Below are positions 44,631-64,000 of a stretch of 64,000 nt of DNA, in pieces. Location of the stretch: the IMG/VR virus record IMGVR_UViG_3300032174_000002, positions 21,091 to 85,090 of that record, one strand, 5' to 3'. The first letter of the stretch is position 1. Every line of letters begins with the position of its first letter. A model generated the notes under the pieces. It had not been told where the DNA came from. It was given only the letters and a program-made list of their open reading frames with translations, and did not search any database. The DNA comes from a virus. The position numbers were made by a program, and so were the translations under genes.

Positions 44631-45452
44631 CTAGCATTCCAACGCCTCCCTCGCCTTGGCGTAGTACGCCTCGCGGCTCGCCAGGCCGTTCAGGCCGCCG
44701 TTGATGGCGCGGGTGATGGCCTGGAAGGCCCACGCCTGATCGGCGGAGTCCGCGAGCCGGTTGCAGTCGTGCGTCGCCCAGTACCGGCCAGCGATGCGGA
44801 AGCCAACCCTCGGCGTCGCCGCCAGGTCCGGGTTGCCTACGAGATCCACACCGAGGGCCGCGCCCATCCCTCGGTAGCCGTCCAGCCCAGTCAGCTCAAT
44901 CGGCCCCCGCCCGCGGTATCGCCAGCCGTCCCCCGACTCCTCAGGCCCGTTGCCCATACGGTTCGCGTACACCCTGTTCGCGATGCGCTCCGGCTGGCGG
45001 GCGTAGGCGGCGGCTGTCTCGGCGTCGAAGTGGGTCGGGAAGGTGGCGAGCAGCGCCGCCGCCGAGTAGTTGAGGTTCTCGGTCCACTCCCTCAGCTCCG
45101 CCGACTCGTGGGCCAGCTGCGCCAGGAAGGCGGCGGCGCGGAGCCGGGTGTCGATGGCGAACTCGACCATGGCGCCGGTGAGGTAGGGCAGGTAGGCAGC
45201 GAGCACTCCCTCGCGCTGGTGAGGCATGATCTGGCCGAGAGCCGGCAGCGGCAGCATGAAGACGTCGGGATAGCCTGCCCCCGCCGGAGCCTCCGGGACG
45301 GCAGGCGCTACGCTGCCGGCCTGCACTACCTCCACGGAGGACGGCGGGGTGCTGCGCGCGTCAGCGGTGTCCAAGGGCGCTGACGCTCCGTTGCCGAAGA
45401 TCCGCTGGAGGATCCCCGCGGCGGCGCTGACGAGATCGTCGAAAAAGCTCAC
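44631..45452 (-). CDS. Endolysin, glycoside hydrolase family 19
   Basis: AFLAQ..HES, ENLNYS, NRMGNG..SGDGWRYRGRG.I.LTG, INGG.NG. Confidence 0.93.
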   Translation of the reverse strand: MSFFDDLVSAAAGILQRIFGNGASAPLDTADARSTPPSSVEVVQAGSVAPAVPEAPAGAGYPDVFMLPLPALGQIMPHQREGVLAAYLPYLTGAMVEFAIDTRLRAAAFLAQLAHESAELREWTENLNYSAAALLATFPTHFDAETAAAYARQPERIANRVYANRMGNGPEESGDGWRYRGRGPIELTGLDGYRGMGAALGVDLVGNPDLAATPRVGFRIAGRYWATHDCNRLADSADQAWAFQAITRAINGGLNGLASREAYYAKAREALEC

Positions 45453-45645
45453 CGCTGGCCCACCTCCTGTGCGATGTGCTGGCGCTTCTCGGTGTGCCGC
45501 TCCCATCGATGCACCCGGCGCTTCGTCGCTCGGCAGCGTGGCGAGCAGCACGGACAGACACCGCCGCGCCGCGACCAGAGATCATCGCCAGCGTGGCCGC
45601 GCTGCATGCCGCCTCTGCCTCTCGGGCCGATGACCACGCCGCGGC

Positions 45646-49876: not shown

Positions 49877-50251
49877 TCAGGACTTCTTCCTGATGACGGC
49901 GCAGAAGTAGATGCCGTCGGTCACCACCAGCGGCGCCAGGTTGATCTCGACCGGGAACTCCTCGCCGCTGCGGTTGATGGCGGTGAGGGTCAGGCCGACG
50001 CCCATGGGGCGCACGCGGGGCTCCTTGACGAAGCCGGCGAAGTGCGCACGGTGGCGCTCGTGCAGAGGCTCGGGCAAGAGCGACTCGATCGGCTTGCCGA
50101 TCATGAAGGCTCTGGGGTGCCCGAAGAGTAGCTCGAGTTGGCGGTTCGCCAGGACGATGGTGCCGGTCCGGTCGGCGATGACCACGGCGTCAGGAAGCGA
50201 CTCGACGATCTCGGCGAGCAGTTCGGGGTCGGGTAGGGCACGCTGGGCCAT
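49877..50251 (-). CDS. Stand-alone PAS (S-box) domain protein, FixL-like
   Basis: ESLPDAVVIAD..G.I..AN..LE.LFG, LLPEP...RH, RPMG.G, GEEFPVEI.LAP. Confidence 0.88.
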   Translation of the reverse strand: MAQRALPDPELLAEIVESLPDAVVIADRTGTIVLANRQLELLFGHPRAFMIGKPIESLLPEPLHERHRAHFAGFVKEPRVRPMGVGLTLTAINRSGEEFPVEINLAPLVVTDGIYFCAVIRKKS

Positions 50252-50532
50252 CAGGAGCTCTCCTCTCTCGCCGGCGCTTTCCCGGCAAACTCGCCGGCAT
50301 ACAGGGCCACCATTCGATCGCCGATCGCCGCGGCCCGCAGTTCGGCGCCCGCGCCCCAGCCGTCAAGGACCGCCCTGGCGGTTCCGAGCGGCGCGAGATC
50401 CCACCGGGCGAAGATCATGGCGGCGAGCTTGGCCGCCTTCGTCTTGCTGAACCCCCAGGTGCGGATCTCGCCGGCGAGCGCCGCCTCCGCCTCCTCCGGC
50501 GAGCAGCCGAGCCGCAGCGGGTTTTTACTCAT
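50251..50532 (-). CDS. Hypothetical protein
   Basis: Coupled ORF. Confidence 0.5.
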   Translation of the reverse strand: MSKNPLRLGCSPEEAEAALAGEIRTWGFSKTKAAKLAAMIFARWDLAPLGTARAVLDGWGAGAELRAAAIGDRMVALYAGEFAGKAPAREESS

Positions 50533-50827
50533 CGCCGGGTTCACCGGACGGCGGCTCGGCCGCGAGCGGCGACAAGAAGGGGCGACGCACCGCCCCGCGA
50601 TTCGCTTCGATGAGCGCCAGCACCGCGCCATCGATGTCCCGAGCCAGCGCCATTGTAGGGTCGTGGACAGCGCAAATCCTCGCGAGCACCGGCGACACGT
50701 CCACCCCGGCGAGCTCGAGCTCCTCAAGGCTCTTGGCCGCCGTCTCGCAGACGTGACCGAGGTACCGAGCGGCGCGCGCGGCCGCCCCGGCGTTATGAAG
50801 CAGCTTTGCATCGGCGCCCCCCGGCAT
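50525..50827 (-). CDS. Hypothetical protein
   Basis: AGGAGG RBS. Confidence 0.5.
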   Translation of the reverse strand: MPGGADAKLLHNAGAAARAARYLGHVCETAAKSLEELELAGVDVSPVLARICAVHDPTMALARDIDGAVLALIEANRGAVRRPFLSPLAAEPPSGEPGDE

Positions 50828-50831
50828 CTTT

Positions 50832-51248
50832 CTACCTCCTTGGCGCGAGAGGGCGCCAGCCGTTCTCGGCGAGCTTCTCTCGCAGCGTTTGCATCTCGAT
50901 CCTCTGGGTCTCGAGGTTCTGATTGGTGACGGCCAGGGACTGACCCTGCGCCGCGACGGTGGCGGCGAGCACCGCGACCTGCTGAGCCTTCGCCTCCTTC
51001 TCGGCCTGCAGCTGCTCGACCTGGTGCTGCAACGCCGCGACGGCTCCCTCGCGCAGTCCATCGCTATGCTGCCAGGCCCCGTAGCTGCCGATCAGGCCGA
51101 CGGCGAGCGCGCCGAACGCGATCCACGCCCCGACGCTCATGCCGATGTGGCGTTGCAGATGCTCGGTCACTTCGCGAATCCTTGTCCACCGAGACCGGCG
51201 AGGCGGCACCAGCGAAAGAGTCCGGTCCGGGATCGCATCGGTTACCAC
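50832..51248 (-). CDS. TM plus coiled-coil protein (holin/spanin-like)
   Basis: One TM then heptads; follows tail genes. Confidence 0.5.
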   Translation of the reverse strand: MVTDAIPDRTLSLVPPRRSRWTRIREVTEHLQRHIGMSVGAWIAFGALAVGLIGSYGAWQHSDGLREGAVAALQHQVEQLQAEKEAKAQQVAVLAATVAAQGQSLAVTNQNLETQRIEMQTLREKLAENGWRPLAPRR

Positions 51249-51282
51249 GCGCCCACCCGGTCGGTCGTTGAATTGATCACGG

Positions 51283-52647
51283 TCACAGAACCTCCTTGAG
51301 CTTATACGACTGGGAATTTCTCGAGAAGCGCGGATTCTTGACCGGCGAGAGCCCGTCGTGGCGACACCAAAGTATCTGGTTGTAGTACTTGCCCGGCGCC
51401 GCCGGATCGGGGATCCAGAGAAAGTTTCCGGTGATTCCCACCGACCCCTGCTGCTGCGAGAAGATCTCGTCCCACGCCTCGGCGTCCCTGAGAGAATTGC
51501 AGACGAGCTCGCCGATCCGCCGCTTCGGCCGCACCTCGAACCACTCCTGCCCGCCGGGTGTTTCGCTCACCGGCGACTTGTCCTCCCAGGAGATGCCCCA
51601 GCCGTAGTCCATGTTCACGAACGGCTGCACCGCATCCGCGACCACCAGCCGGCCGGCCTGCGCGTAGCCCGGCGAGCCGTTCAGGTCCACCTGGTCCACG
51701 AGGACCGTCCCGCCGGCGCCGGCGACGCTGACGGGCGTCGGGAGCACCCAGGCGAGGTTGAATACCCGCGCCACCTGCGTCGTCACGAATTGCGGGTAGG
51801 CGATGACCAGGTCACCGGAGTCGGCCAGGTAGCCGTTGTGCTCGGCCTGCCACTCGACCGCCGAGAACTCCACCGTCTGCGTCGAGCCGTGGACGCCGGT
51901 GAGCCGGAGGCCGGCCTGTGTCGTCGAGAGGCCGGTCGCCAGCAGGGAAGCGTTCCAGCTCACCTGGACGAGTTGGCCGCCAGTCCTCGTGATCGCGATC
52001 CCGGACGCCAGGTTGGCGGTGAAGACGCCGGCCTCGAAAAGATCCACGGAGAGCGTCGGGTCCGTCCCGCCGGAACCGCTCCGGCGGCACCAGATGTTGA
52101 AGGTCTGGAGGTTCGCCCCGGGCTTGAGCGGCAGCAGGCCATGGTCCGTCTGAGGGAGGTCGAACTGCCACCGCGCATCCGTGTTCGCGGTCGGCGAGAT
52201 CGCGGTCAGCCAGCTCGTCGCCGGCAGCCAGACGCTGGCGCTCGGCGCGCCGACCAGGTTGGCGAAGAGGTTGGGAGCAAACGCCACCGGGCGCACGATG
52301 ATCGAGAGCGGGCTGCCGAAGGAGCTGCCGTAGGCGCGCGCGCGCCACTTGCGGAGCAGGCCGCCGATCACCGGACGCGCAGCATCGGCGACGAGCGCGA
52401 CGACCGCGACGCGCGAGTCGATCGTCGCCTGAACCGGAGGCGCCGAGTACTGCAGCCACCGCGAGCCCGGATAGCCGAGCGGCGAGGCGACGACCCCGGG
52501 CACCAGGTCCGCCGCGCTCCGCCACGGGCTCGTGATCTGCGGGTATCGGAGATTCGCGACGTCCGATCCCGGTGCGGTGCTGCCGGCCGAGAGGCCGGCG
52601 CCGGCCAGGTCGACCGAGTTCGGAAGCGTGAAGAGCATCGAGGCCAT
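51283..52647 (-). CDS. Tail protein
   Basis: Beta-rich; GRLV...QP.VNMDYGW...W.D.S...TPGG..F motif of phage tail proteins. Confidence 0.7.
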   Translation of the reverse strand: MASMLFTLPNSVDLAGAGLSAGSTAPGSDVANLRYPQITSPWRSAADLVPGVVASPLGYPGSRWLQYSAPPVQATIDSRVAVVALVADAARPVIGGLLRKWRARAYGSSFGSPLSIIVRPVAFAPNLFANLVGAPSASVWLPATSWLTAISPTANTDARWQFDLPQTDHGLLPLKPGANLQTFNIWCRRSGSGGTDPTLSVDLFEAGVFTANLASGIAITRTGGQLVQVSWNASLLATGLSTTQAGLRLTGVHGSTQTVEFSAVEWQAEHNGYLADSGDLVIAYPQFVTTQVARVFNLAWVLPTPVSVAGAGGTVLVDQVDLNGSPGYAQAGRLVVADAVQPFVNMDYGWGISWEDKSPVSETPGGQEWFEVRPKRRIGELVCNSLRDAEAWDEIFSQQQGSVGITGNFLWIPDPAAPGKYYNQILWCRHDGLSPVKNPRFSRNSQSYKLKEVL

Positions 52648-55253
52648 CAGCCCTGCCCCCAGACACCGAGCCCGACCGAGCCCAGTTGCTGCGCCTGGTC
52701 GAACGACAAGACGACAAAGTTGCGGGGCAGCCCCAGGCGCGGCCCGGCGCCCCCCGGCAGGCTGTAGCTGATCGCCGCCTTCTCGTTGACGTCCGAGCTG
52801 TACGGCAGGGTATGACCGCCGATCTTGTAGAGGTCGCTCCGCACCGAGAACAGCGCGAGCAGGCGCTTGGCCTCGACCAGCGCGTCCGCGTAGAAAGCAT
52901 AGTTGGCGAGGACGATCAGCGCCCCGGCCTGGCTGTAGGTGGTCAGAACCTGGGCGTCCTGTGCCAGGGCATAGCGGTACTGCCGCAGGCAGAAGGCCAG
53001 GCGGGGCGGATTCGAGAGCGCGATGCCGGTCAGCTGGTTGGCGGAGGAGTTGCTGGAGTTGTAGTTCTGGGCATAGGCCACCGCGACCCGGTACACCGGG
53101 ACGGTCTGGAGCTCGGCCGTCCACTGCGGCTTGGTCTCGATCGAGGTGTAGTCGAGCGAGACCGCCGGCGCGCCGGCCGGGACGCCCCCGAACCTGGCGA
53201 TCTGGAAGAGGTTGCCGATCCGCTGGAAGCCGAAGAGGGCGCCCACCGTCGACGCGACTTCGTTGCAGACGTCCTGCAACGTGCGCCCGGCACCGAGTAG
53301 GGCGCTGTTGAACGGATCCGGCGAGGACGCCGCGCTGTCCTGGACGGCGATGCCGATCGTGGCGCCGTTGGCGGCATCCATGGCCGCGAAGGCAGCTGTG
53401 TCGAGGTCGGCAGGGTCGGCGAGCAGCCCGTGGCGCACGACGACGCGGCGCATGATCTGGCCGGCCGTCTTGACGTAGCCGTGCGGGCCGCCGTTGTCGC
53501 CGCGCACCCACGCGCTGATCGTCCCGGCCGGGTTCTGGAGCAGCGTGAAGTAGCCGCGCGCCGGGTCCGCCGCCCACTGCGCTGTCCCAGCCTCCGTCGC
53601 GATGGTGACCGGAGGGCCGGCCGCCTGCGTCGTGATCGGCGCGCCGACGAGGTTGAAGATGATCGCCGTGGCGCCGGGGGCAGGCCGCACCGACGCGATC
53701 TGGAAGGTGCCGTCGTTGACGCCGCCGGCGCTCCCGGAAATCGTCACCGTCATGTTCGGAGTCGCCGCCCCGGGGATGACCGGGGGGGCCGCTGCTGCTC
53801 CTGGCGTGAAGATCCCCGGCGCGAAGACGCTGAAATCCGCGCCCGCGGCGGCGATCTGGTTCGGCGCCTGGAAGGCGACGTCCGCGCCGGTGTAGGAGAA
53901 CGGGGGCCGGAGCCAGGCGCCCTTGTCGGAGACGCCCTTGATCAGCTGCACGCTGCCGTCGTGGACCTGGTAGATGAGGCTCGGCGGGTCGACCAGGATC
54001 GCCGGCAGCTCGGGGACCTCGCCGTAGCAGAGCGGGAGCGCGGTGCCGGCGATGTTCGGGTCCGACCAGTCCGCGACGTCCCATGCCGGCTGCCCGAAGA
54101 GGATGCCGGTATGGCCGCCGGTCGTGCTGTCGTAGACGTAGGCGCGCTGACCCTCGCGGCAGCCGGCGTCGAGGACGAGGCCGGCCTCGTTGCCGGCCAT
54201 GCGCTTGCGCATCCCGTCCTGGATTTGCGCCTGCGTGCGGGCCACGGACCAGATCCGCAGCGCCGACATCCGGTTGCCGGCGCCGATCCCATTGAGCACG
54301 AGCCCGGCGGACGGGAAGAGGGCGGTCAGGTACGTCCCCGCTCCCGGCGTGCCGAGCGAGCCCGAGAGCCCCGAGGCCGATGCCAAGAGCACGCCGTTGA
54401 TGTACACGGCGATCGTCTGCGCGGCATGGTCGTAGGCAAAGGCGACGTGCTGCCACCCCAGGGTGATCGAGCCGGCCGGCGTCGAGTACATGCCGATCCC
54501 GGTCAATCCGATGGCCAGGTAGTCGAGCGGCAGCTGGAAGTACCAGCCGTGCGAGGCGTCGGACATCGAGAGCGGCGTGCTGTTGCCGCCGGTCCCGGTC
54601 AGGTAGAGCCAGAACTCGACCGTGACCGAGCCGGTCTGCGCCGGGAAGGTCGGCCAGACGACCTTGTCGCCGTAGGCCCCGACCTCGACGCACGGCGGGC
54701 TGTAGGTGTCGGCCGGCTGGCTCTGGATCGGCTTGGCGAACGTCCAGTCCCGTGACCGCAGGTGGAGCGTCGCCCGCAGCGGGTCGACGAGCATGTCGCC
54801 GGCGCCGACGCCGTCGAGGACGGTGCCGTAGTCGGAGAGCGCCAGGACCGTGCCGTTACTGAGCGAGCCGCCGAGCTGCAAGAGCGCGCGGCGGCCGTCG
54901 AAGGCGAGCTGCCGCAGGTTGTCGAGACCGCCGTCGCCGTTGCCGAACCCGACCTGCCCCAGGTCCGGCGTCGCGTAGCCCCCGATCTGGTTGCCGCTGT
55001 ACATGCTGCGCTTGACCATCGGGATCCCGTCCTCGGTGATCCGGCCGGCGTACTCCATCGTGGCGGGGTTGTCGCCGGGCTGGGACGTGAAGCCGTGCGA
55101 CGAGAAGTAGCGCGGGAGGATGGCTCCCCAGTCCGCCCCGCCGGGGTTCCAGGCGCAGCCGGTCAGCGCGAGCGCCGTGCCGCCGGTCGCGCTGACGGCG
55201 AGGGCCGACGGAGCGCCGTCCGCCAATCGCCAGTACTGGACCAGGGTGGGCAT
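52647..55253 (-). CDS. Tail tip/hub protein with LamG domain (C-terminal part of apparently split gene)
   Basis: FSSHGF.S.P.D.PA...Y.GRI, N.DGGLD, PLCYGEV, YQVHDG; LamG WQHVA..YING. Confidence 0.75.
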   Translation of the reverse strand: MPTLVQYWRLADGAPSALAVSATGGTALALTGCAWNPGGADWGAILPRYFSSHGFTSQPGDNPATMEYAGRITEDGIPMVKRSMYSGNQIGGYATPDLGQVGFGNGDGGLDNLRQLAFDGRRALLQLGGSLSNGTVLALSDYGTVLDGVGAGDMLVDPLRATLHLRSRDWTFAKPIQSQPADTYSPPCVEVGAYGDKVVWPTFPAQTGSVTVEFWLYLTGTGGNSTPLSMSDASHGWYFQLPLDYLAIGLTGIGMYSTPAGSITLGWQHVAFAYDHAAQTIAVYINGVLLASASGLSGSLGTPGAGTYLTALFPSAGLVLNGIGAGNRMSALRIWSVARTQAQIQDGMRKRMAGNEAGLVLDAGCREGQRAYVYDSTTGGHTGILFGQPAWDVADWSDPNIAGTALPLCYGEVPELPAILVDPPSLIYQVHDGSVQLIKGVSDKGAWLRPPFSYTGADVAFQAPNQIAAAGADFSVFAPGIFTPGAAAAPPVIPGAATPNMTVTISGSAGGVNDGTFQIASVRPAPGATAIIFNLVGAPITTQAAGPPVTIATEAGTAQWAADPARGYFTLLQNPAGTISAWVRGDNGGPHGYVKTAGQIMRRVVVRHGLLADPADLDTAAFAAMDAANGATIGIAVQDSAASSPDPFNSALLGAGRTLQDVCNEVASTVGALFGFQRIGNLFQIARFGGVPAGAPAVSLDYTSIETKPQWTAELQTVPVYRVAVAYAQNYNSSNSSANQLTGIALSNPPRLAFCLRQYRYALAQDAQVLTTYSQAGALIVLANYAFYADALVEAKRLLALFSVRSDLYKIGGHTLPYSSDVNEKAAISYSLPGGAGPRLGLPRNFVVLSFDQAQQLGSVGLGVWGQG

Positions 55254-55265
55254 CTCGCGTCCGCG

Positions 55266-55550
55266 CTACTTCCCGGTGACGCCGGCGTCCGGAGCCGCGG
55301 CCAGCTTTGCCTGCGCCTCGGTCAGGCGCGCCTCGGCGTGGGCGGCGGCGATGTCCTTCGCCCACGACAGGCCCAGGCCCAAGCCGAGATACACGAGTAG
55401 GGCCGGCCAATCGTCTCTCCACATCGTCATGGCGCCGGCGTGGCCGAGGGTCGCCCAGATGAAGCTGAAGACCACGCTGAAGGTGATCGCGTTCTTCGGC
55501 ACCCACGACGGGAGGCCGCCGGGGGCTGGCTGCTGCGGGTCGTCGCTCAT
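55266..55550 (-). CDS. Small two-TM protein (holin-like)
   Basis: AAGGAG RBS; two hydrophobic helices. Confidence 0.55.
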   Translation of the reverse strand: MSDDPQQPAPGGLPSWVPKNAITFSVVFSFIWATLGHAGAMTMWRDDWPALLVYLGLGLGLSWAKDIAAAHAEARLTEAQAKLAAAPDAGVTGK

Positions 55551-55585
55551 TTGCGCTCCTTGGATGTCGTGGTAGCGTTCGCTCC

Positions 55586-55993
55586 ATGACGACGCCGTTC
55601 GCCAGGACCTTCAACGCCGGCCTCTGGGGCGCCGTGGCGCTCTTCCTCGCCCTCGAGGCGTGCCACTACGGGCGCCAGGCGCTGGTGGCGCCGGTGGTGG
55701 TTACCTACGTCTGCGCCTCGATCGCCGCGGCCGACGCCTACGGCGAGTACCGCGCCCGGGACCTGGCGGCCGGGCGGATCGTCCTGTCGATCGGGTGCTA
55801 CACCGCGCGCGGCCTGCCGGAGCCGTACACTCAGCAGCTTCTCAAGATCGACTGGGCCGACGAGGTGGTTTTCCTTCGCGGCACGGAGGAGTCGATTCTG
55901 CTGCTGCAATACCTGACCCGCGCTCGCTCTTCCGGCAAGCCTGTGCACGAGATCTGGCCGGCCGCCGGGCCGCGACTTTTCCGCCGCAGCTGA
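55586..55993 (+). CDS. Hypothetical membrane-anchored protein, opposite strand (moron-like)
   Basis: TAGCGT -10-like box 7 nt before ATG; N-terminal hydrophobic helix. Confidence 0.5.
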   Translation: MTTPFARTFNAGLWGAVALFLALEACHYGRQALVAPVVVTYVCASIAAADAYGEYRARDLAAGRIVLSIGCYTARGLPEPYTQQLLKIDWADEVVFLRGTEESILLLQYLTRARSSGKPVHEIWPAAGPRLFRRS

Positions 55994-56004
55994 GACTCGG
56001 CCGC

Positions 56005-57849
56005 TCACTTCCCCGCCCAGTTCTTGATGACGCTTGATTCTGTGCGCGCTCTCACCCAATTTAGATGGCAGGTGGTGTTGTCCCGAACGAAGTAGAAGAA
56101 GCTCGGCGGCGCGCTCAACAGGGTCGTGGTCGTGGCGACCACGTTGAAGATCTTGCAAGTTTCATTCGAGAACGCGAACGTCAGCACCCCCGTCGACGCG
56201 ATGTACCGCAACTGCACGCATCCCGAGAGGGTGTTGGCGTCTACCCCGATGCTGCCGCTAGGGACGGAGATGTTGGCCAGGCCAGCCGCGGCGTAGGAGG
56301 TGGCCGTTTGCCACGCCGGCGCACCGCTGGAAGTGAAGTAGCCGAAGTAGAGTTTCGTCGGCGAAGCTAATGTGCCCGTCAGAACGCCGATGCCGCATCC
56401 GTTGCCGAGGTTCGACAGGTCTACTTGAGCCGTGACCGTGAAGTCCACGGTCCCGCTGCTCGGCGCCCCCAGGCCTCTCACCTGGAAATTGCAGCTTGTA
56501 CAACCCGCGAGGGTGGCGCCCTCCATTTCCAGGGTCTCTGTGGCAGTGCCCTGGTTCTGCCAGGTCCAGCTCTGCCTGGCGACGTTTCCGGGCCAGGTTT
56601 CACAGACCGAAGAACCGGTGAAACAGGAGGTGGGCTCGGTTTCCGGGTCATAGTGACCCGGGCCGCTGGCGGTCCCGACCACGTCCCAGTTGGCGCCATT
56701 CGAGACGACGGCCAGGAACGCTCCCTGGTAGGCGAGTGCCGCCGGCGTAGCGCCGTCGACGGTCTGGGCCGAGGTGGTGGCGACGGAGCACAGGTTCGTG
56801 CTGGAGTCGGTCTTCTTGATGAGGTGCGCGGTGCCCGTGGCACCCGCCGCGGCAGCGTCGGGGAGTGTCTCGGTGAATGCCCCGCCGGCGGCGTTGCATT
56901 CGGTGTAGCTCTCCGTCTGCGGGATGGAGTAGTTGGCGGTCTGGCTGGTCAGGACCGGCGACTGGTACGAGCCGTCTGCGCTCGAGCCGTTGGAGACGAA
57001 GCGCTGGCCGGCGATGCCGGCGCTCGCGGCCGCTACCGCGCCGGTGCCCTCGCCGAGCAGGGGGCCATGGGCCGTGAGCGTCGTGTCGCCAGTCCCTCCA
57101 TGCGGAACGGTGTTCGGGTCCAGCGTCGCCGCTGGCGCGAACACTACCCCGTTCGTCTTCGTGCAGGTGATCGCGTTGCTTCCCGAGGTCGTGCAGTCGC
57201 CGCTCATCTCGGCCGCCGTCATGGGCGAGCCGCCGCGCATCACGCCGGCCAGCGTGCTCACCGTCCCGCTGCCGCCCTGGTTGGTGGGCAACGCCGCGGA
57301 CAGGTGCGTCGCACAGACCTGCGGCGCCGTCGCGGAGCCGCACAAGTCATTGGCCAGCTCGAGGATGCCCTTGATGCTGCTGGTGGCGTCCACCGGCGCC
57401 GGCGGTACGGCCCAGGTCGCGTCCTCGCGCAGGTAGCGCGTCACCCCCGCCGAGCCGCCGGGATCCGGCACGATGCCGCGTGCATGGCTCCCGCCGGAGG
57501 CGACAAAGTCGGAAAGGTTCGCGAGCGGCACGACCGTTGCCGTCCAGGTGCAGGTGATCGCCGCCACGCCAGCGGCGGCTGTCGCCGGGCTTGGCGTGCA
57601 GCTGAACTGCGCTGGCAACGCCAAGGTGAAGGATTGGAACGCTGGCCCCAGGAGATCCACCGCGAGCTGGTACTGGTCGCGGCTGATGCCGAGCTTCGAC
57701 ACCAGGTAGGCGTCCGTCGGCGCCGGACTCGTGTCGTGGATCAGGCCGCGGATCGTGGAGTTCTGGGCGCCGGCCGGGAGCGCCACGAAGGCGGCCAGGA
57801 GCGCCGCCAGGATGGTGCGCGGGATGCGTCGATCGATCATCATCGCCAT
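56005..57849 (-). CDS. Tail fibre-like protein with N-terminal signal peptide
   Basis: DAT..KGILEL.NDL, GGTG repeats, YLREDATW, TLP.A...IKKTD; lower-GC C-terminal domain. Confidence 0.7.
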   Translation of the reverse strand: MAMMIDRRIPRTILAALLAAFVALPAGAQNSTIRGLIHDTSPAPTDAYLVSKLGISRDQYQLAVDLLGPAFQSFTLALPAQFSCTPSPATAAAGVAAITCTWTATVVPLANLSDFVASGGSHARGIVPDPGGSAGVTRYLREDATWAVPPAPVDATSSIKGILELANDLCGSATAPQVCATHLSAALPTNQGGSGTVSTLAGVMRGGSPMTAAEMSGDCTTSGSNAITCTKTNGVVFAPAATLDPNTVPHGGTGDTTLTAHGPLLGEGTGAVAAASAGIAGQRFVSNGSSADGSYQSPVLTSQTANYSIPQTESYTECNAAGGAFTETLPDAAAAGATGTAHLIKKTDSSTNLCSVATTSAQTVDGATPAALAYQGAFLAVVSNGANWDVVGTASGPGHYDPETEPTSCFTGSSVCETWPGNVARQSWTWQNQGTATETLEMEGATLAGCTSCNFQVRGLGAPSSGTVDFTVTAQVDLSNLGNGCGIGVLTGTLASPTKLYFGYFTSSGAPAWQTATSYAAAGLANISVPSGSIGVDANTLSGCVQLRYIASTGVLTFAFSNETCKIFNVVATTTTLLSAPPSFFYFVRDNTTCHLNWVRARTESSVIKNWAGK

Positions 57850-57868
57850 GAAGTCCCTCTTCTCTCGT

Positions 57869-58609
57869 TCAGCCGAGGTCGAGCACATCGCCGCCCCCGT
57901 CGATCTGCAAGAAGCTCGAGTCGTCGATCATCAGGTTGGCGCCGAGCCCCGGGTTGTAGTACGGCAAGCCGTGCGACCAGTACCACGGCTGCACCTGCGT
58001 CGAGTTGAGCGCGCCGGCGTAGACCTGGAAGTCGCTGACCTCGCCGTCGAGGTACTGGTTGGCGCCGACCGGATCGCGCAGGACGGAGCAGGCGTTGCCG
58101 GGCGCGTTGAAGGTGCCGCTGACCGTGGCCTGCCTGCGCAGCAGGGCCAGGTAGCCGGGCAGGCGCTCGACGGGCGGCGCCATCGTCAGACTGTAGAGCG
58201 ACAGCGTCGCCGGGTAGCTATCGACGTCGAGGACGGCATAGAGGTACGTCCACATGCCCGGCGGTACCGAAACGATCATGCCGGCCCAGGTGGCGAGGAA
58301 CTGCGTCCCGGCGTCGTTCGAGACGACCGCCTCGGCCAGGTTCGTGCCGCTGCTGCTGAGACGGAGGAACCGCTGGCCCGCCGCGGCCCCGTCGCCGCCG
58401 AAGCCGGCGATGTACTTGGCCGCGATCGCCGAGGTCCTCGGCTTGACCCAGCAGCCCCAGGACATCGAACCAGCCGGCGCTGCGACCGTCGCCGCGCCGT
58501 AGCTGGCCACGCCGTCCCCGACGAGCGACGGGGCGACGTGCGCGACGTCGTAGGGCCAGAGCGTGCAGAGCCATGCTTTCGTCGCCAGCGGATCCGCCAG
58601 CAGCGCCAT
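57869..58609 (-). CDS. LamG-domain tail protein (N-terminal part of apparently split gene)
   Basis: SWGCWVKP, WTYL.AV, LDGEVSDFQVY..ALN..QV. Confidence 0.7.
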   Translation of the reverse strand: MALLADPLATKAWLCTLWPYDVAHVAPSLVGDGVASYGAATVAAPAGSMSWGCWVKPRTSAIAAKYIAGFGGDGAAAGQRFLRLSSSGTNLAEAVVSNDAGTQFLATWAGMIVSVPPGMWTYLYAVLDVDSYPATLSLYSLTMAPPVERLPGYLALLRRQATVSGTFNAPGNACSVLRDPVGANQYLDGEVSDFQVYAGALNSTQVQPWYWSHGLPYYNPGLGANLMIDDSSFLQIDGGGDVLDLG

Positions 58610-58620
58610 GTAGTTGGCGG

Positions 58621-61600
58621 TCAAGCTGCCCTCCCGGCGCGCTGAACGCTGCCAACGACGGCCATGGCGCGGGTGAGCTCGGCCTGGCGTCGTTCGACTT
58701 CGGCCACGCGACCAGCGAGAACAGCGGCCTCGGCCCGCTGCTGATCCCGGAACGCGGCGAGCTCGGCGACGACCGCCTTGCCGTCTGCCGTGAGCTGGTC
58801 GCCCTGGGGCGGCGCCGGCACCAGCCGCACCGAAACCACGGCCGCCGGCGAGAGCGGCGGTACAGCGCCCCAGGGCGAGAGCGGCGCGGTCGCAGCGTCG
58901 CGCGCCGCATATCGGTCGGCCGGGTTCTGCCCGCCGGTGCCAGTCGCGATCAGGCGCAGCGCCGCGGCGGCGGCGGTGCCGGCGACCGCGGTCGCGTTCA
59001 GGGCATCCGCCGCGGCCCGGGCGGCCGTGGTCCCGGGATCGTTGACCGTGGCGCCGGTGGGTGATGGCGGCGGTGCAATCGCGCCGCCGGGCGCGCCGCT
59101 GCCGGTACCAGGATAGAACCCCGCCGGCAGCCCGGAGGGGAGCGCTCCGCCGGACCAGTAACTCGGCGTCGTGACCGGCAGGCCGAGCTTCTGCTCGAGC
59201 GCCTGGAGCTGCGTCAGGACCGCGTTGAACATCAACGTGTACGGGCCGCTCGAGCCGTACTCGTCGCGCAGCGCCGTGAGGTAGTCCGTCGCCGCCTGCT
59301 GCGCGTTCGACACCGCGGTCGCGTCGGCGCCAGGGGCGTTGGCGAGCCCGAGGTCTCGCTGCCACTCGGCAGCGGCCGCCGTCACCCGCTCGGCCGGCGT
59401 CAACGGCGAGATCGCCGTGTTCTGGCGCAGCGAATCAATGAACTTCTGCAGGGCATCGGCGGCGGACTGCGCGGAGGAGGCGAGGTTGCCCTGGGCGGCC
59501 GTCGCCGAGCTCGCCCCGGCGTTGAGCTTCGCCCAGTCCGGGGTGTTCGCCGGGTCGGCGAAGAACGCCTCGATCCCGCTCACCTGGTCGGCGAGTGCCT
59601 GGGTGATGACGCCCTGCGCCAGGAGGATGTCCGTCTCCTCCTGAAGCTGTGCCAGCTTGATCTCGAAGTCGATCTGCTCGAGTTGCTCCTTGACGAGCTC
59701 GGCCTGCTTGGTGTTGCCCGCCGCGGTGTAGATGCCCTCGACCATGGTGAGGACGTCGGCCGACCCTTGCTGCGCGATCTGCTGCATCTCGCGGTTGAAT
59801 TCGGCAGCGGAGATCGCGCTGTCCGCGAGCCCGGTCCGTAGGGCCTCGATGGCATCGCTGAACTTCTTGGCGTCGGCGGCCGTCGTATCGAGCGGGAGCG
59901 ACAACCCGCCGACGACCTGCATGACCAGATTCTTTTCGTCCTGCAGCTCGGCGACTCGAACGCGGTGGAGTTCCGCCGAGCCGGCGCCCAGATCCTGCTC
60001 GGTCTTGTAGATGTTGGCGAATTGCGTATGGATCGCCGACAGCCCGACCGCGAAGGTCGAAAGCCCATGAGCCTGCTGGACCAGCGGGGTGACTACCGCA
60101 TCGGTCTGGGCCTGCGTTTGCAGCCGCAGCAGGGCGATGTCCGCCGCGCGGGCCGCCTCCTCGTCCTTGTATGCCTGGCTGCTCTTCTTGAGCCCCTTCT
60201 CCTGCTCGTCGATGTCCCGGTTGATCTTGAGAACGGCGGCGTCGAACGGGAGCATCCCGAACTGCGTCAACGCGAGGAGCGCCTGCGCCAGCGTCTGGGC
60301 GGCGGAGGCAAGCGAGGTGACCGAGGATGACGCCGAGCCACCAGGCGCGTGGAGATCGCCGGGCTTGATCGTGAGGCCGGCCAGCTGCTTCAGCAGGTCC
60401 TCGTCGCTCTGGATCGCCGCGTTGATCGAATCGAGCAAGAGCTTGTTGGCGTCGTCGATCACGCCAGCCGACTTGGCCTGGATGGTGGCGCTGTCCACGG
60501 TCGCCCGCGCCACGAGCCCGAGTCCGGTGATATACGCGCCCTGGCCGGCGATCGATAACGCCTCGACTTGCAGTTGGATGATCTGTTGCTTGACGCTCGC
60601 CTCCTGCAAGGCGAGGGCGTTGTTGTACGTCTCCATGTCGAGCTGCTGCTGCTGTTTCGCAGTCAGCCTCTTGCCCTCGATGGAGTCGCGCTCCTTCTCG
60701 TCAAGCGCGACGATCCCCGAGTTCACGTCGCCCAGCATGGTCCCGAGGTCGGCGAGCGACAGGCCCATGTTGACCAGCGCGATGTTCTCGCTGATCACCT
60801 GGTTGCCGAAATTCGCCATGTCGGTCGTGATCTGGGAGATGGCGCCGTGCGCGCCGGCGATCACCTGCTGCAGGACCTGGACGTTGCCCAGGATCTGGTT
60901 GGGGTCGACCGAGCCGCTCAGGTTCTTGACGTAATCCTGGATGATCTTCGGCAGGTTGCCGAGGTTGGCCTTGTTGAAGGCCGCCGCGATACCGTGATCG
61001 ATCGCGGACTGCATGGACTGGAAGCTGCCGATGATCGTGTTGCCGACCGTGACCTGGAACTCGAGGCCGTTCTTCGACACCTGGACGGCGATCGCCGGCA
61101 GGCTCTGGATAATCTGTCCGGTGGCCTTCTCGAAACCCTCGAAAAACTGTTGCAGGCTCTGAACGACCTGCTGCGACTGCTGATCGAAGGAGGTGAGACT
61201 GGCGCCCGCGGCGCCGAGGCCAACGCTGGGTGTGCCACCTACCTGGTTGTAGGAGGCGCCCGGCTGCACGCCGCCGAAGGTCATCCCGGGACCGAAGGTC
61301 GTGTTCGGGTCCGGGCCGGCCTTGCTCAGGAAGCCGGTGATGACGTTGTAGACCACCCAACCGGCGAAGGCGACAGCGCCGGCGTAGAGCAAGCCAGAGG
61401 CGCCAACGCCGCTCGCCAAGCCGCCACTACCACCGCCACCGAACAGCGAGGCGATGCCGCTGATGAGGCCCCCGCCGCTGCTCGAGGCCCCGGCGGCGGC
61501 CGTCGATGCCGCCGCCTCCGTCTGTAGCGCCGCGGCGAGGTCGAACTCCTGCGCGTTATTCGTGAACAGGCCGGAGTTCTCGCCGAACCACTGGAATTCC

Positions 61601-64000
61601 TGCTTGGAGAAGTCGGTCTGGAGCGAGGCCGAATTGCCGAGCATCGAGCCGGCACTCGCAAGCTTGTCGCCGGCGCCTCCCAGGATGCCGCCGAGGCCAC
61701 CGAGCGGGCTGCTGCCGGTGAGCGCCCCAACAAAGGTCCCGAACTGCGACACGGCCGACTGGAACTGCGCGGTCGCGCCGCCTCCGGGGCCGCCGCCGAA
61801 GAGCGCCGTCTGCAAGGTCGCGCCCTGGCCAAAGAGCCCCTGCACGATGCTCGACTCGGCCTCGTGCGCCGCCATGTTGGCGAGCGCGTCGACGACGGTC
61901 TTCTCCATCCCCTGCCAGATGGATTTCCAGGTGACCGCCATGCCGGCCGCCGATTCGCCGACGGCCTGGAACAGCGTCTCCCAGTCCTTGCTGACCGCGT
62001 CGGCGACCGACTTCTCGTCCGCGGCCCGTTGCTGCAACACGGCGGAGAGCTGCCTGTACGCCTCGATCTGCCGGGAGACGCCGGCGAGGTCGGCCGCCAG
62101 CAACTGGGCCTTGACCTGGCCCTCCTGGGTCGCCAGGTTGATGCTATTCCTGTGGATCTCCTGGAGCAGCAGCTCCTGGTAGGCGACGAAGCCCTCGGCC
62201 GTGAACAGCGATTGGTACTGCTGCGCGAGGCCGCCGACCGCCGGGTTGATCTGGGCGTAGAGCCCGAGGTCGGCCTCGAGCTTCGCGACTTCGCTCTCGG
62301 CTCCCTGGAGGGCGCCCTCGCGCACGGCGGCCAGCCCCTGCTCGCCGGCGGTCAGATCCTTCGTCCCCTGGAGCTGGAAGCCCAGCAGCGAGATCTCGAG
62401 GCGGCGCGCGTCCAGGAAGCCGCCGGAGAGGTTCTCCCGCTTCGCCTGGGTGTCTGCGGCGGTGACGATCGCGTTGGCGCGCGAGTAGTCGTTCGAGCGG
62501 GAGAGGGCATCGGCAAGGGCGGCTTCGGCGGCGCGCTGCTCGTCGGTCGCCTTGATGTTGTAGCCGATCTGGGCGACCTGGCTGCCGATCGCGATCGAGG
62601 CCAGCGCCGCGTTGCGGGCGCGCTCGAGCTCCCGCTGCCCCTCCTCGGACAGGATCGGGATCCCCGCCGCGGCGAGCGCCACGCGCTCCTTCTCGACCGC
62701 GGCCGCGATGATCCCGGCAGAGGTGCTCTGGCTGGTCGCATCCGCGAGCTTCGCCTGGCCGAGCGCGGCGGCGGCGATCTCGGCCTCGCCCTCCTTGTAG
62801 GTCAGGGCGTTGCGGAGCTTGCTGGCGGTGTTCTGGTCGATCGCCGCCCCGGCGGCGCGGAGCGCGACCTCCTCGGCCTTGGTGACGACCAGCCCCTTGT
62901 CCTTCGCCTCGGTCTCGAGCTTCGCGATCTCGGCCTCGGCCTGCATGGCGCCGGCGTGGAGGCGGGCGGCGCCCGTCCCGAGCAGTTCGGCGTCCGCCTC
63001 GATGGCGAGCTTCGCCGCGCGTTCCTGCATGCCGACGATCACCTTGTTGATCGAGTCGGTGAAGTTGGCCTGTTCCTTCGTGGCCTTGGCGACGCCCGCG
63101 CCGTACAGGGCGTCGCCCTCGCCCAGGAGGTCGAGGACGGCCATGAGGTCGTAGGACTGCTTCGTCGTCAGCTGCTGCTGGGCTTGGAGCTTGGCCAGTT
63201 CGTCGCGCAGCTTGACCAGGCTGCCGCTCGCGCCGCCGGCGGACGGCTGCGCGATCGCACCCCCGCCGCCGTCGCCCATCGCGCTGGCCATCGCGATCGC
63301 GAGCTTTTTTTCCTCCTCGATCTGCGCCTCGATGGCGACGATCTGCTTCTTGACGGCCTCGATCCGGACGACCGCCGCGGTCTCGGCCGCGAGGGCGGTT
63401 TTCAGGTCGGCCTCGGCCAGCTGCCGCGCGGCCTCGCGCTGCTGCTTCGACCAGTCGTCGATGTTGGTGAAGTCGCCGTGCAGTCGCTCGAGGGCGGTCC
63501 CGAACTGGTCGAGGAAGTCGGAGATCTTGGCGGCGGAAGCGAACTCGCGGTCCTGGGCCGCGGCCGCCGCATCGACCTCGAGCACGTAGTTGTGCATGGC
63601 GACGGCAAGGCCGCCGACCGCGACCAGCGCCAGGGTGACTGGATTGGCCAGCAGGGAGGCGGTGAAGGCGTCGGTCGCCGCGGCGGCGCCCTCGGTGGCG
63701 GCGGCATCGGCGGCGACGGCCCCGGCGTGGAGGGTCGCCGCCGCGGCGGCATCGCCGGAGGCCACCGCGGAACTGCTGACGGCCGCCCCGTAGGCGTCGT
63801 AGATCACGGCGCCGGCGGCGGTCGCGGCTCCGGCCGACGTCGCGGCGCCGGCGAGCTCTCCCTCCCCGGCCGTGAGCGCCAGGCTCGCGGCCGCCGCCCG
63901 CTCCATGGCCCCGGCGGCCAGGGTCAGCGCCGGTACCAGCTCGACCAGCGCCGCCGCGGAAGCCGCGGACGCCGCCGCTTCGGCGGCCTGCGCCGCGGCC
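58621..64000 (-). CDS. Tape measure protein (5' end outside window)
   Basis: >1760 aa Ala/Gln-rich helical ORF, LLANPV motif, upstream of tail genes. Confidence 0.88.
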   Translation of the reverse strand, partial: AAAQAAEAAASAASAAALVELVPALTLAAGAMERAAAASLALTAGEGELAGAATSAGAATAAGAVIYDAYGAAVSSSAVASGDAAAAATLHAGAVAADAAATEGAAAATDAFTASLLANPVTLALVAVGGLAVAMHNYVLEVDAAAAAQDREFASAAKISDFLDQFGTALERLHGDFTNIDDWSKQQREAARQLAEADLKTALAAETAAVVRIEAVKKQIVAIEAQIEEEKKLAIAMASAMGDGGGGAIAQPSAGGASGSLVKLRDELAKLQAQQQLTTKQSYDLMAVLDLLGEGDALYGAGVAKATKEQANFTDSINKVIVGMQERAAKLAIEADAELLGTGAARLHAGAMQAEAEIAKLETEAKDKGLVVTKAEEVALRAAGAAIDQNTASKLRNALTYKEGEAEIAAAALGQAKLADATSQSTSAGIIAAAVEKERVALAAAGIPILSEEGQRELERARNAALASIAIGSQVAQIGYNIKATDEQRAAEAALADALSRSNDYSRANAIVTAADTQAKRENLSGGFLDARRLEISLLGFQLQGTKDLTAGEQGLAAVREGALQGAESEVAKLEADLGLYAQINPAVGGLAQQYQSLFTAEGFVAYQELLLQEIHRNSINLATQEGQVKAQLLAADLAGVSRQIEAYRQLSAVLQQRAADEKSVADAVSKDWETLFQAVGESAAGMAVTWKSIWQGMEKTVVDALANMAAHEAESSIVQGLFGQGATLQTALFGGGPGGGATAQFQSAVSQFGTFVGALTGSSPLGGLGGILGGAGDKLASAGSMLGNSASLQTDFSKQEFQWFGENSGLFTNNAQEFDLAAALQTEAAASTAAAGASSSGGGLISGIASLFGGGGSGGLASGVGASGLLYAGAVAFAGWVVYNVITGFLSKAGPDPNTTFGPGMTFGGVQPGASYNQVGGTPSVGLGAAGASLTSFDQQSQQVVQSLQQFFEGFEKATGQIIQSLPAIAVQVSKNGLEFQVTVGNTIIGSFQSMQSAIDHGIAAAFNKANLGNLPKIIQDYVKNLSGSVDPNQILGNVQVLQQVIAGAHGAISQITTDMANFGNQVISENIALVNMGLSLADLGTMLGDVNSGIVALDEKERDSIEGKRLTAKQQQQLDMETYNNALALQEASVKQQIIQLQVEALSIAGQGAYITGLGLVARATVDSATIQAKSAGVIDDANKLLLDSINAAIQSDEDLLKQLAGLTIKPGDLHAPGGSASSSVTSLASAAQTLAQALLALTQFGMLPFDAAVLKINRDIDEQEKGLKKSSQAYKDEEAARAADIALLRLQTQAQTDAVVTPLVQQAHGLSTFAVGLSAIHTQFANIYKTEQDLGAGSAELHRVRVAELQDEKNLVMQVVGGLSLPLDTTAADAKKFSDAIEALRTGLADSAISAAEFNREMQQIAQQGSADVLTMVEGIYTAAGNTKQAELVKEQLEQIDFEIKLAQLQEETDILLAQGVITQALADQVSGIEAFFADPANTPDWAKLNAGASSATAAQGNLASSAQSAADALQKFIDSLRQNTAISPLTPAERVTAAAAEWQRDLGLANAPGADATAVSNAQQAATDYLTALRDEYGSSGPYTLMFNAVLTQLQALEQKLGLPVTTPSYWSGGALPSGLPAGFYPGTGSGAPGGAIAPPPSPTGATVNDPGTTAARAAADALNATAVAGTAAAAALRLIATGTGGQNPADRYAARDAATAPLSPWGAVPPLSPAAVVSVRLVPAPPQGDQLTADGKAVVAELAAFRDQQRAEAAVLAGRVAEVERRQAELTRAMAVVGSVQRAGRAA

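Follow-up and report, generated by a model that had tools for sequence, protein, structure and literature searches.

A predicted tail-tip hub gene split within a nested LamG domain by a three-gene insert in a complete 85-kb virus genome

Morons and superinfection-exclusion genes occur in the tail regions of phage genomes, among them llp of T5, beside the receptor-binding gene, and gp15 of HK97, among the tail genes. To our knowledge, the known morons lie between genes and not within one. Genes that are themselves divided by inserted DNA have been described in T4-like phages as 'genes in pieces': nrdA of Aeromonas phage Aeh1 is split by mobE and the T4 topoisomerase by mobA, with gene 43 of phage 25 as a further case (PMC2988022). 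At the tail tip, evolved Tal and Dit proteins carry carbohydrate-binding modules in loops, and evolved Tals have two decorating modules in their gp27-like N-terminal domain, as set out in PMC7291167. The locus described here bears comparison with all of these. It lies in a 64-kb window (the whole stretch of DNA analyzed; bases 21091-85090 of the complete 85,090-bp soil virus record IMGVR_UViG_3300032174_000002, which has direct terminal repeats), where the gene for a predicted tail-tip hub protein is cut, inside a domain nested within the hub, by an insert of three genes. No paper on a hub gene interrupted by a cassette of genes was found among the titles and abstract openings of the literature on split phage genes.

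As in 'genes in pieces', inserted DNA here divides a coding region that relatives keep in one piece, and each half possesses a start and a stop of its own. The cases in PMC2988022 are, in contrast, enzymes divided by one homing-endonuclease gene whose halves reassemble, whereas the divided gene here would encode a structural protein, the insert holds three genes, no endonuclease was found and reassembly is a prediction. The parts of the locus are as follows (positions are those of the window).

57869..58624, minus strand, hub N-half (P0016, 251 amino acids (aa), from a TTG start at 58624; P0001 is the 246-aa form from ATG 58609)
56005..57849, minus strand, fibre-like cargo gene 1 (614 aa)
55586..55993, plus strand, cargo gene 2 (135 aa)
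55266..55550, minus strand, cargo gene 3 (94 aa)
52647..55253, minus strand, hub C-half (P0002, 868 aa)
55254..57940, insert of ~2.7 kb that is missing from relatives (BLASTN and MAFFT against contigs L004 and L005)

A preliminary description of this DNA had reported open reading frames (ORFs) at 57869-58609 and 52647-55253, separated by three genes, and had regarded them as one split tail-tip gene. The ORFs and the insert exist as reported, and the split is borne out by contiguous relatives. In five of these (P0006-P0009 and P0017), the hub gene, which here follows a tape-measure-like gene (so named for its position, size and Ala/Gln/Glu-rich composition only), is a single ORF of 1057-1111 aa. 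A word-indexed search with P0002 gave 11 matches, four of which (P0006-P0009, 1065-1111 aa) cover 99-100% of P0002 and have ~240 extra N-terminal residues that correspond to the 246-aa P0001. Residues 2-216 of P0001 align with residues 7-229 of the contiguous, 1111-aa P0006 (164/223 identical, E 9e-103), and residues 6-868 of P0002 with its residues 248-1111 (605/871 identical). P0007, P0008 and P0009 likewise span P0001 and P0002 head to tail, as does P0017, a fifth contiguous form recovered by an exhaustive HMMER search with P0006; alignment to contiguous homologues was the check that the preliminary description had proposed. Among 1960 candidates of similar length, no stand-alone P0001-like protein was found but P0001 itself.

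Comparison at the DNA level places the event within narrow limits. Contigs L004 and L005, which carry P0006 and P0007 respectively, have the order tape-measure-like gene, fused hub gene, gene of 454/479 aa, with nothing between. The window is ~76-78% identical to L004 on both flanks of the insert (BLASTN, MAFFT). This identity stops at ~58021/57940 and restarts at ~55250/55185, with 197 nucleotides (nt) between these points in L004 versus 2.8 kb here, and in the protein alignment ~18 linker codons (P0006 residues 230-247) are replaced by ~2.7 kb. The left breakpoint thereby falls between 57962 and ~57937 and the right breakpoint between 55253 and 55247. Since the hub is fused in the nearest relative (~70% identity) as well as in those farther away (41-58%), the hub gene split in two is, judged from these alignments, the derived state. 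Searches beyond these relatives comprised tblastn of both halves against 50,697 GenBank phage records, with no match; a scan of genome contigs, with only an unrelated LamG match; a metagenome scan with P0001, which recovered only the P0006 contig; and viral contig scans with P0006 and P0007, which recovered only each query's own contig. The contig scans of viruses, genomes and metagenomes thus yielded no second split genome and no near-identical genome free of the insert. The fused relative P0009 lies on a 2.09-Mb contig, and the hub family is therefore probably also present in a prophage of a bacterial chromosome.

By its position and fold, the product of the split gene appears to be a siphophage-type baseplate hub, or Tal-type tail-tip protein. 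The fold comparison was made with the fused relative P0006 and not with the two halves in the window. An AlphaFold2 model of P0006, built from a 46-sequence alignment, has a mean predicted local distance difference test score (pLDDT) of 83.2 and a predicted TM-score (pTM) of 0.73. Foldseek matched this model to two chains of T5 pb3 (7zqp_b, E 5.4e-15; 7zhj_b, E 2e-14) and also to the tips of DT57C, lambda, Chi, JBD30, T1 and RcGTA. VIA comparison with tail-tip hubs gave Z 15.8-17.9 over 284-470 aligned residues, including T5 pb3 (Z 15.8, 470 aligned, root-mean-square deviation 3.9, model residues 1..1111 against chain residues 4..712) and 6tba_8A (Z 17.4). We take these chains, partly on the basis of PMC7291167, to be T5 pb3 (7zhj, 7zqp), lambda gpJ (8k35, 8xcg), the RcGTA g15 'megatron' (6tba) and the corresponding protein of roseophage R4C (8gtc). 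Like the hubs T5 pb3, lambda gpJ and RcGTA g15, the protein is encoded directly downstream of a tape-measure-like gene, and the fold of the P0006 model matches theirs at E 5e-15 to 1e-6. Unlike them, it is encoded by two genes. Searches at the sequence level gave no match to them: sequence libraries returned only Laminin_G_3 (Pfam, E<=1) and phrog_8917, a profile search of the PDB returned only LamG-type domains, and no Pfam Tal or gpJ family was found in the hub proteins at E<=1.

The position of the cut within this protein was resolved with a family alignment of 46 hand-picked members (P0006, P0002, P0009 and 43 others of <1,200 aa out of 150 listed, the giants with LamG repeats and all remaining entries being omitted). 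The hub N-domain is present in 46/46 of these, and an N-terminal segment containing a strand, beta1, in 45/46, the sole exception being P0002, the C-half in the window. The family has a common N-terminal pattern in which a helix and strand (..LLADP.A.R..L....PYD) are followed within ~10 residues by a hub motif (..Y.S..GF.T.P.D.P.N..). In the P0006 model, beta1 is a strand at E15-22 with a pLDDT of 79-88. It runs straight into the hub in 40/46 members, and only 5/46 have a LamG domain, LamG1, in between. LamG1 is thus a domain inserted into the first hairpin of the hub, between beta1 and beta2. The N-terminal motif that the preliminary description had read as that of a tail-tip protein does belong to the hub, in the form of beta1, with the refinement that LamG1 is an insertion following it. 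Members of minimal size (~500 aa) consist of beta1, the hub N-domain and the C-terminal domains, and LamG1, LamG2 and the middle region have the appearance of optional insertions.

LamG1 was compared with LamG2 by profile, as BLASTP proved too insensitive. The LamG1 module, including 40 residues past the end of the Pfam domain (..L.EYWELDDG...LTLTG.AWNP..), runs collinear with LamG2 and the element that follows the LamG2 domain (hhalign, 99.7%, E 3.6e-26, 194 columns). The LamG2 module with this tail element (model residues 426-642) superposes on whole pentraxin/LamG structures with Z 20-24, and the N-terminus of the C-half scores 27.3 bits on a hidden Markov model (HMM) of the LamG2 tail. Together, these results place the cut within LamG1 as a structural domain, ahead of the two strands that end it. 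It maps to residues 230-247 of P0006, overlapping a stretch with pLDDT<50 (residues 233-241). The earlier claim of a cut inside a LamG domain accordingly holds for the structural fold; it does not hold for the Pfam Laminin_G_3 model, which ends at DFQVY..QV, ahead of the cut. The L..YW.L.DG element, usually found ahead of Laminin_G_3 domains, forms the last strands of the fold in these modules.

With LamG1 nested in the hub, a cut at this site yields an interdigitated pair, in which the N-half carries beta1 and the bulk of LamG1, and the C-half the final LamG1 strands together with all other parts of the hub. The segments concerned are listed below.

58547..58624, minus strand, hub N-terminal segment (residues 1-26, helix and beta1; 25/26 residues identical to P0006)
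57872..57961, minus strand, new 30-aa C-terminal tail of the N-half, delimited by alignments and followed by a TGA stop at 57869-57871
55119..55247, minus strand, two LamG1-completing strands (C-half residues 3-45; scored with the LamG2-tail HMM as given above)

When the N-half protein P0001 is modelled alone, from 6 aligned sequences, the mean pLDDT is 47.1, and beta1 and the last LamG strands are unformed or of low confidence (pLDDT 26-39) versus strands at 79-88 in the fused protein, an outcome that would fit a dependence of these strands on the other half. Like the evolved Tals in PMC7291167, the fused ancestor would have carried two LamG modules in the hub, the first in an N-terminal hairpin, and relatives in which that loop is empty exist. 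The modules treated in PMC7291167 are mostly of the BppA type, in phages of Gram-positive bacteria, and the proteins are single chains, whereas here a cassette of genes cuts through one of the inserted modules. The LamG modules of the hub are of lectin type and may bind sugars.

Both halves have the features of intact genes. The N-half most likely begins at TTG 58624, five codons upstream of the ATG at 58609 that the preliminary description had taken as its start: the TTG is preceded by a GGGAGGG Shine-Dalgarno sequence, overlaps the stop of the upstream gene in the sequence TTGA and gives an N-terminus (MTANY...) as in relatives. The ORF itself stands as first described. It encodes the hub N-terminal helix and beta1, LamG1 minus its last two strands (Laminin_G_3, E 3.7e-8) and the new tail, with a third-position G+C content (GC3) of 0.94. 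Within the N-half, the segment with beta1 is conserved best. In the tail, the first ~8 residues may derive from the ancestral linker, and the last ~22 are without counterpart in relatives. The tail (..FLQIDGGG..) was also considered as a diverged copy or duplication of the LamG tail strands, a reading that was rejected since it scores -0.2 bits on the LamG2-tail HMM, a value equalled by 350/2000 shuffles. The C-half comprises the two final strands of LamG1, a hub N-domain that lacks beta1, LamG2 (Laminin_G_3, residues 195-345, E 7e-13), the middle region and the hub's C-terminal domains; it matches phrog_8917 (function unassigned) at residues 552-866 (E 2e-45) and has a GC3 of 0.945. Its ATG lies 12 nt past the TAG stop of cargo gene 3. 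Neither half contains a frameshift or internal stop, and the start, stop and ribosome-binding signals of both sit exactly at the breakpoints. Ratios of nonsynonymous to synonymous substitution (dN/dS) relative to P0006 are 0.30 (N-half) and 0.31 (C-half), compared with 0.27-0.29 among the fused relatives themselves. Throughout the complete, terminally repeated 85-kb genome, these two pieces are the only hub matches, with no second copy.

The insert is distinguished by its base composition and by its absence elsewhere. G+C drops to 0.62-0.65 at 55750-56500, versus ~0.70 around it, with codon usage otherwise phage-like (GC3 0.87-0.93). All three cargo genes are missing from the available parts of two related records (56% and 80% complete). 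Their proteins have no significant family match in PADLOC, NCBIfam, Pfam or PHROGs and no paralogues in the window. Cargo gene 1 (614 aa) starts at ATG 57849, which is preceded by GAGGGA. The product, P0003, contains at residues ~122-164 (in 627-aa numbering) a fibre motif widespread among phages, which is encoded in 28/31 IMG/VR pattern matches and also occurs in 13 database proteins, the shared stretch extending over only ~35-150 aa. A DUF5907 repeat falls below the cut-off (E 5e-5), and Atlas neighbours are of fibre type, all at <0.9 and, being under the reliability mark, leads only. P0003 starts with what resembles a Sec-type signal peptide, in which three arginines are followed by 13 hydrophobic residues and by PAGA-Q (hydrophobic stretch, residues 22-41). 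With such predicted export, P0003 would stay out of virions put together in the cytoplasm. A signal-peptide-like N-terminus is odd for a virion fibre, and P0003 could be an exported receptor-masking protein.

Cargo gene 2 lies on the opposite strand and converges on cargo gene 1 across a gap of 11 nt. Its product, P0004, has one or more hydrophobic N-terminal segments (stretch at residues 32-49) and a small C-terminal domain, with a GC3 of 0.90 and no relative in IMG/VR. Weak Atlas neighbours of its C-terminal ~80 residues are small Rossmann-like domains (DUF2493, TIR/ThsB-like, YpsA and DUF4406) with TM-scores of 0.44-0.50 by query, which serve as a lead only. Cargo gene 3 encodes two hydrophobic segments behind a strong AAGGAG Shine-Dalgarno sequence. 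It shares a reading frame with the C-half, from which it is separated by TAG and four codons (55251-55268, minus strand), an arrangement that probably reflects translational coupling or chance. Homology of its C-terminus (..AAAPDAGVTGK) to the ancestral linker was rejected as a coincidence of low complexity, given that by eye the Ala-rich stretches are offset by ~10 codons and not collinear. Read-through of the TAG into the C-half is unlikely: TAG is an ordinary stop in 6/32 larger ORFs, and the only tRNAs in the window are tRNA-Pro and tRNA-Met, with no suppressor.

As a group, the cargo genes resemble morons in encoding small membrane or exported proteins, in being missing from close relatives, in lying among tail genes with one on the opposite strand and in their deviating G+C. 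They differ in lying inside a gene, in that a simple scan for sigma-70 promoters and intrinsic terminators found none (the host may use another promoter type) and in that no similarity to known exclusion or defence proteins was found. A moron-like accessory cassette, possibly serving superinfection exclusion or receptor masking, is our guess at its nature and the weakest part of the account given here.

Taken together, the locus is probably a derived 'gene in pieces' whose two products reassemble into a hub by reciprocal strand complementation, with the insert as moron-like cargo. The ancestor would have been one ORF of ~1100 aa encoding a hub of the T5 pb3/lambda gpJ/RcGTA g15 type with two LamG lectin-type modules, the first seated in the hairpin between hub strands beta1 and beta2. 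Some 2.7 kb of foreign DNA would then have entered the flexible stretch just ahead of the last two LamG1 strands and replaced the ~18 linker codons, presumably through illegitimate recombination, because neither repeats nor a recombinase are found. The N-half would have retained its Shine-Dalgarno sequence and TTGA coupling to the upstream gene and acquired a tail of 22-30 aa with a stop, and the C-half would have acquired its ATG behind the last cargo gene. The polypeptides would reassemble without being rejoined, beta1 of the N-half completing the hub N-domain on the C-half and C-half residues 3-45 completing the LamG1 sandwich on the N-half, so that the hub would consist of three such heterodimers. 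The cargo would consist of a fibre-like protein, probably exported, and of two small proteins of the membrane. The preliminary description had already named a naturally split protein, reassembled by domain complementation, among its readings; the natural split is upheld by the fused relatives, the intact and equally constrained halves, the sole hub copy and the strands of each domain found on the opposite half, and from these we infer the reassembly.

Several observations weigh against this account. The contacts of beta1 with the hub and of the tail strands with LamG1 are deduced from secondary structure, model confidence and homology and not from a contact map. The Shine-Dalgarno sequence of the C-half is weak, and the poor model of P0001 alone may merely reflect its 6-sequence alignment. 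The split is known from a single genome, which cannot demonstrate its persistence. The dN/dS values cover the whole divergence from P0006 and cannot date the event, such that a recent insertion would show no decay even in a useless N-half. Any role assigned to the cargo is conjecture, given the lack of significant family matches and of a detected promoter or terminator. Lastly, the two sequencing runs that contain the arrangement may both be source samples, so that confirmation of the assembly is not fully independent.

Some of these observations lend weight to an alternative in which the N-half is a recent, undecayed relic, or a free lectin without a role in the hub, and the C-half alone is a working hub. 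The single occurrence, the undatable dN/dS and the poor P0001 model are all compatible with a relic, and the 40/46 aligned relatives that work without LamG1 indicate that this domain is dispensable for the family. Beta1 is a different matter: the other 45 aligned members all have it, it is absent from the C-half, and it is precisely the part of the N-half that has changed least. The N-half also keeps its strong Shine-Dalgarno sequence and upstream coupling, and the two orphan LamG1 strands are still well conserved on the C-half. A relic is considered unlikely, though the most probable of the alternatives. Unlikely, too, is the proposal that the split is adaptive and no mere surviving accident, with LamG1 as a detachable arm that attaches to the hub through an exchange of strands in both directions, beta1 in one and two LamG strands in the other, and with the new tail or the fibre-like protein adding a further binding function. 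If true, it would point to a general and hitherto undescribed route of tail-tip diversification in tailed phages, in which fibre cassettes land in the loops of lectin domains and the cut domains become plug-and-socket joints.

Alternatively, the insertion may have inactivated the hub, and the genome would then be that of a variant that is defective or was damaged very recently. Assembly might fail in a hub that lacks a covalent link within two domains, and only one lineage bears the split, as would be expected of a dead end. Such damage sits poorly with a complete genome that has direct terminal repeats, was abundant enough for assembly at ~23x and has all sampled words in two runs, or with start, stop and ribosome-binding signals placed at the breakpoints of halves free of frameshifts and internal stops, and this explanation is regarded as quite improbable.

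Reassembly of two separate polypeptides would be unnecessary if the cassette were removable, either from DNA by site-specific recombination or inversion or at the RNA level, and contiguity of the hub were thereby restored. The preliminary description had raised a spliced or excisable host-range cassette as a possibility, while itself noting no recombinase or terminal repeats, and the latter observation extends from the insert to the whole genome. Neither tyrosine (PF00589) nor serine (PF00239) recombinases nor an HNH nuclease were found anywhere in the 85 kb, in searches whose positive controls worked, and library scans gave no recombinase or nuclease among the insert proteins and no intein domain in any of the five proteins, the GIY-YIG and LAGLIDADG models not having been searched genome-wide. 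Repeats bracketing the insert amount to chance-like direct or inverted matches of 12-41 nt at 70-90% identity, no Rfam intron was found at E<=1 in 50000-60000, and no insert-free joined form was present among the contigs examined. The only hint of continuity is the frame shared by cargo gene 3 and the C-half, against which stand the ordinary use of TAG as a stop, the lack of a suppressor tRNA in the window and the opposite orientation of one cargo gene. Excision or splicing is accordingly highly improbable. Mis-assembly or a chimera of two phages, also raised earlier and conceivable for a metagenome assembly supported by its possible source runs, is the least credible explanation, since 54800-58700 is reproduced with 0 differences in a Logan contig of 84,849 nt that was built separately, at an even depth of ~23 and with no joints or loose ends clustered at the junctions, there is no junction repeat to cause a false join, the insert has phage-like codon usage, and two runs contain all sampled 31-mers, with only short pieces over the stretch in run X2.

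The fused ancestor would have been an ordinary, if elaborate, lectin-decorated hub; what appears new is a structural hub split within a nested domain by an endonuclease-free cassette. The special value of the locus lies in its close fused relatives, which define the event precisely. Hub proteins are essential and tightly packed, and a natural cut with known breakpoints, fused sister genes and pieces interdigitated in two domains offers a ready test of the degree of covalent continuity required. If the halves do reassemble by strand complementation, the cut would mark a natural permissive site for cargo genes or exchangeable lectin arms on a siphophage tail tip, of use for understanding host-range evolution and for the laboratory engineering of phages. 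It would also extend 'genes in pieces' from enzymes split by homing-endonuclease genes to a virion structural protein with a different kind of insert.

The genes on either side of the split locus are those that flank the fused hub in relatives, in a window with a G+C content of ~70%.

58621..63999, minus strand, tape-measure-like gene (at least 1761 aa, from the ORF list; runs off the window)
51283..52647, minus strand, conserved 454-aa gene (ATGA overlap with the hub stop; phrog_8610, function unassigned, E 3e-15)

The junction sequence shows the TGA stop of the tape-measure-like gene overlapping the TTG start of the hub N-half. The tape-measure-like protein has no Pfam or PHROG match. The gene is very long, with at least 1761 aa here and 2461 aa in a relative (L005, 2619-10004). 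The 454-aa gene is also found downstream of the fused hub in both L004 and L005. Across all the ORFs from the tape-measure-like gene to the 454-aa gene, GC3 is 0.87-0.95, the range of real genes in this genome. A GH19-type endolysin is encoded ~7 kb downstream of the hub, at 44631-45551 on the minus strand (phrog_181, E 9e-76; Glyco_hydro_19, E 1.5e-10), and with such an endolysin nearby, the two-segment membrane protein of the insert need not be the phage holin.

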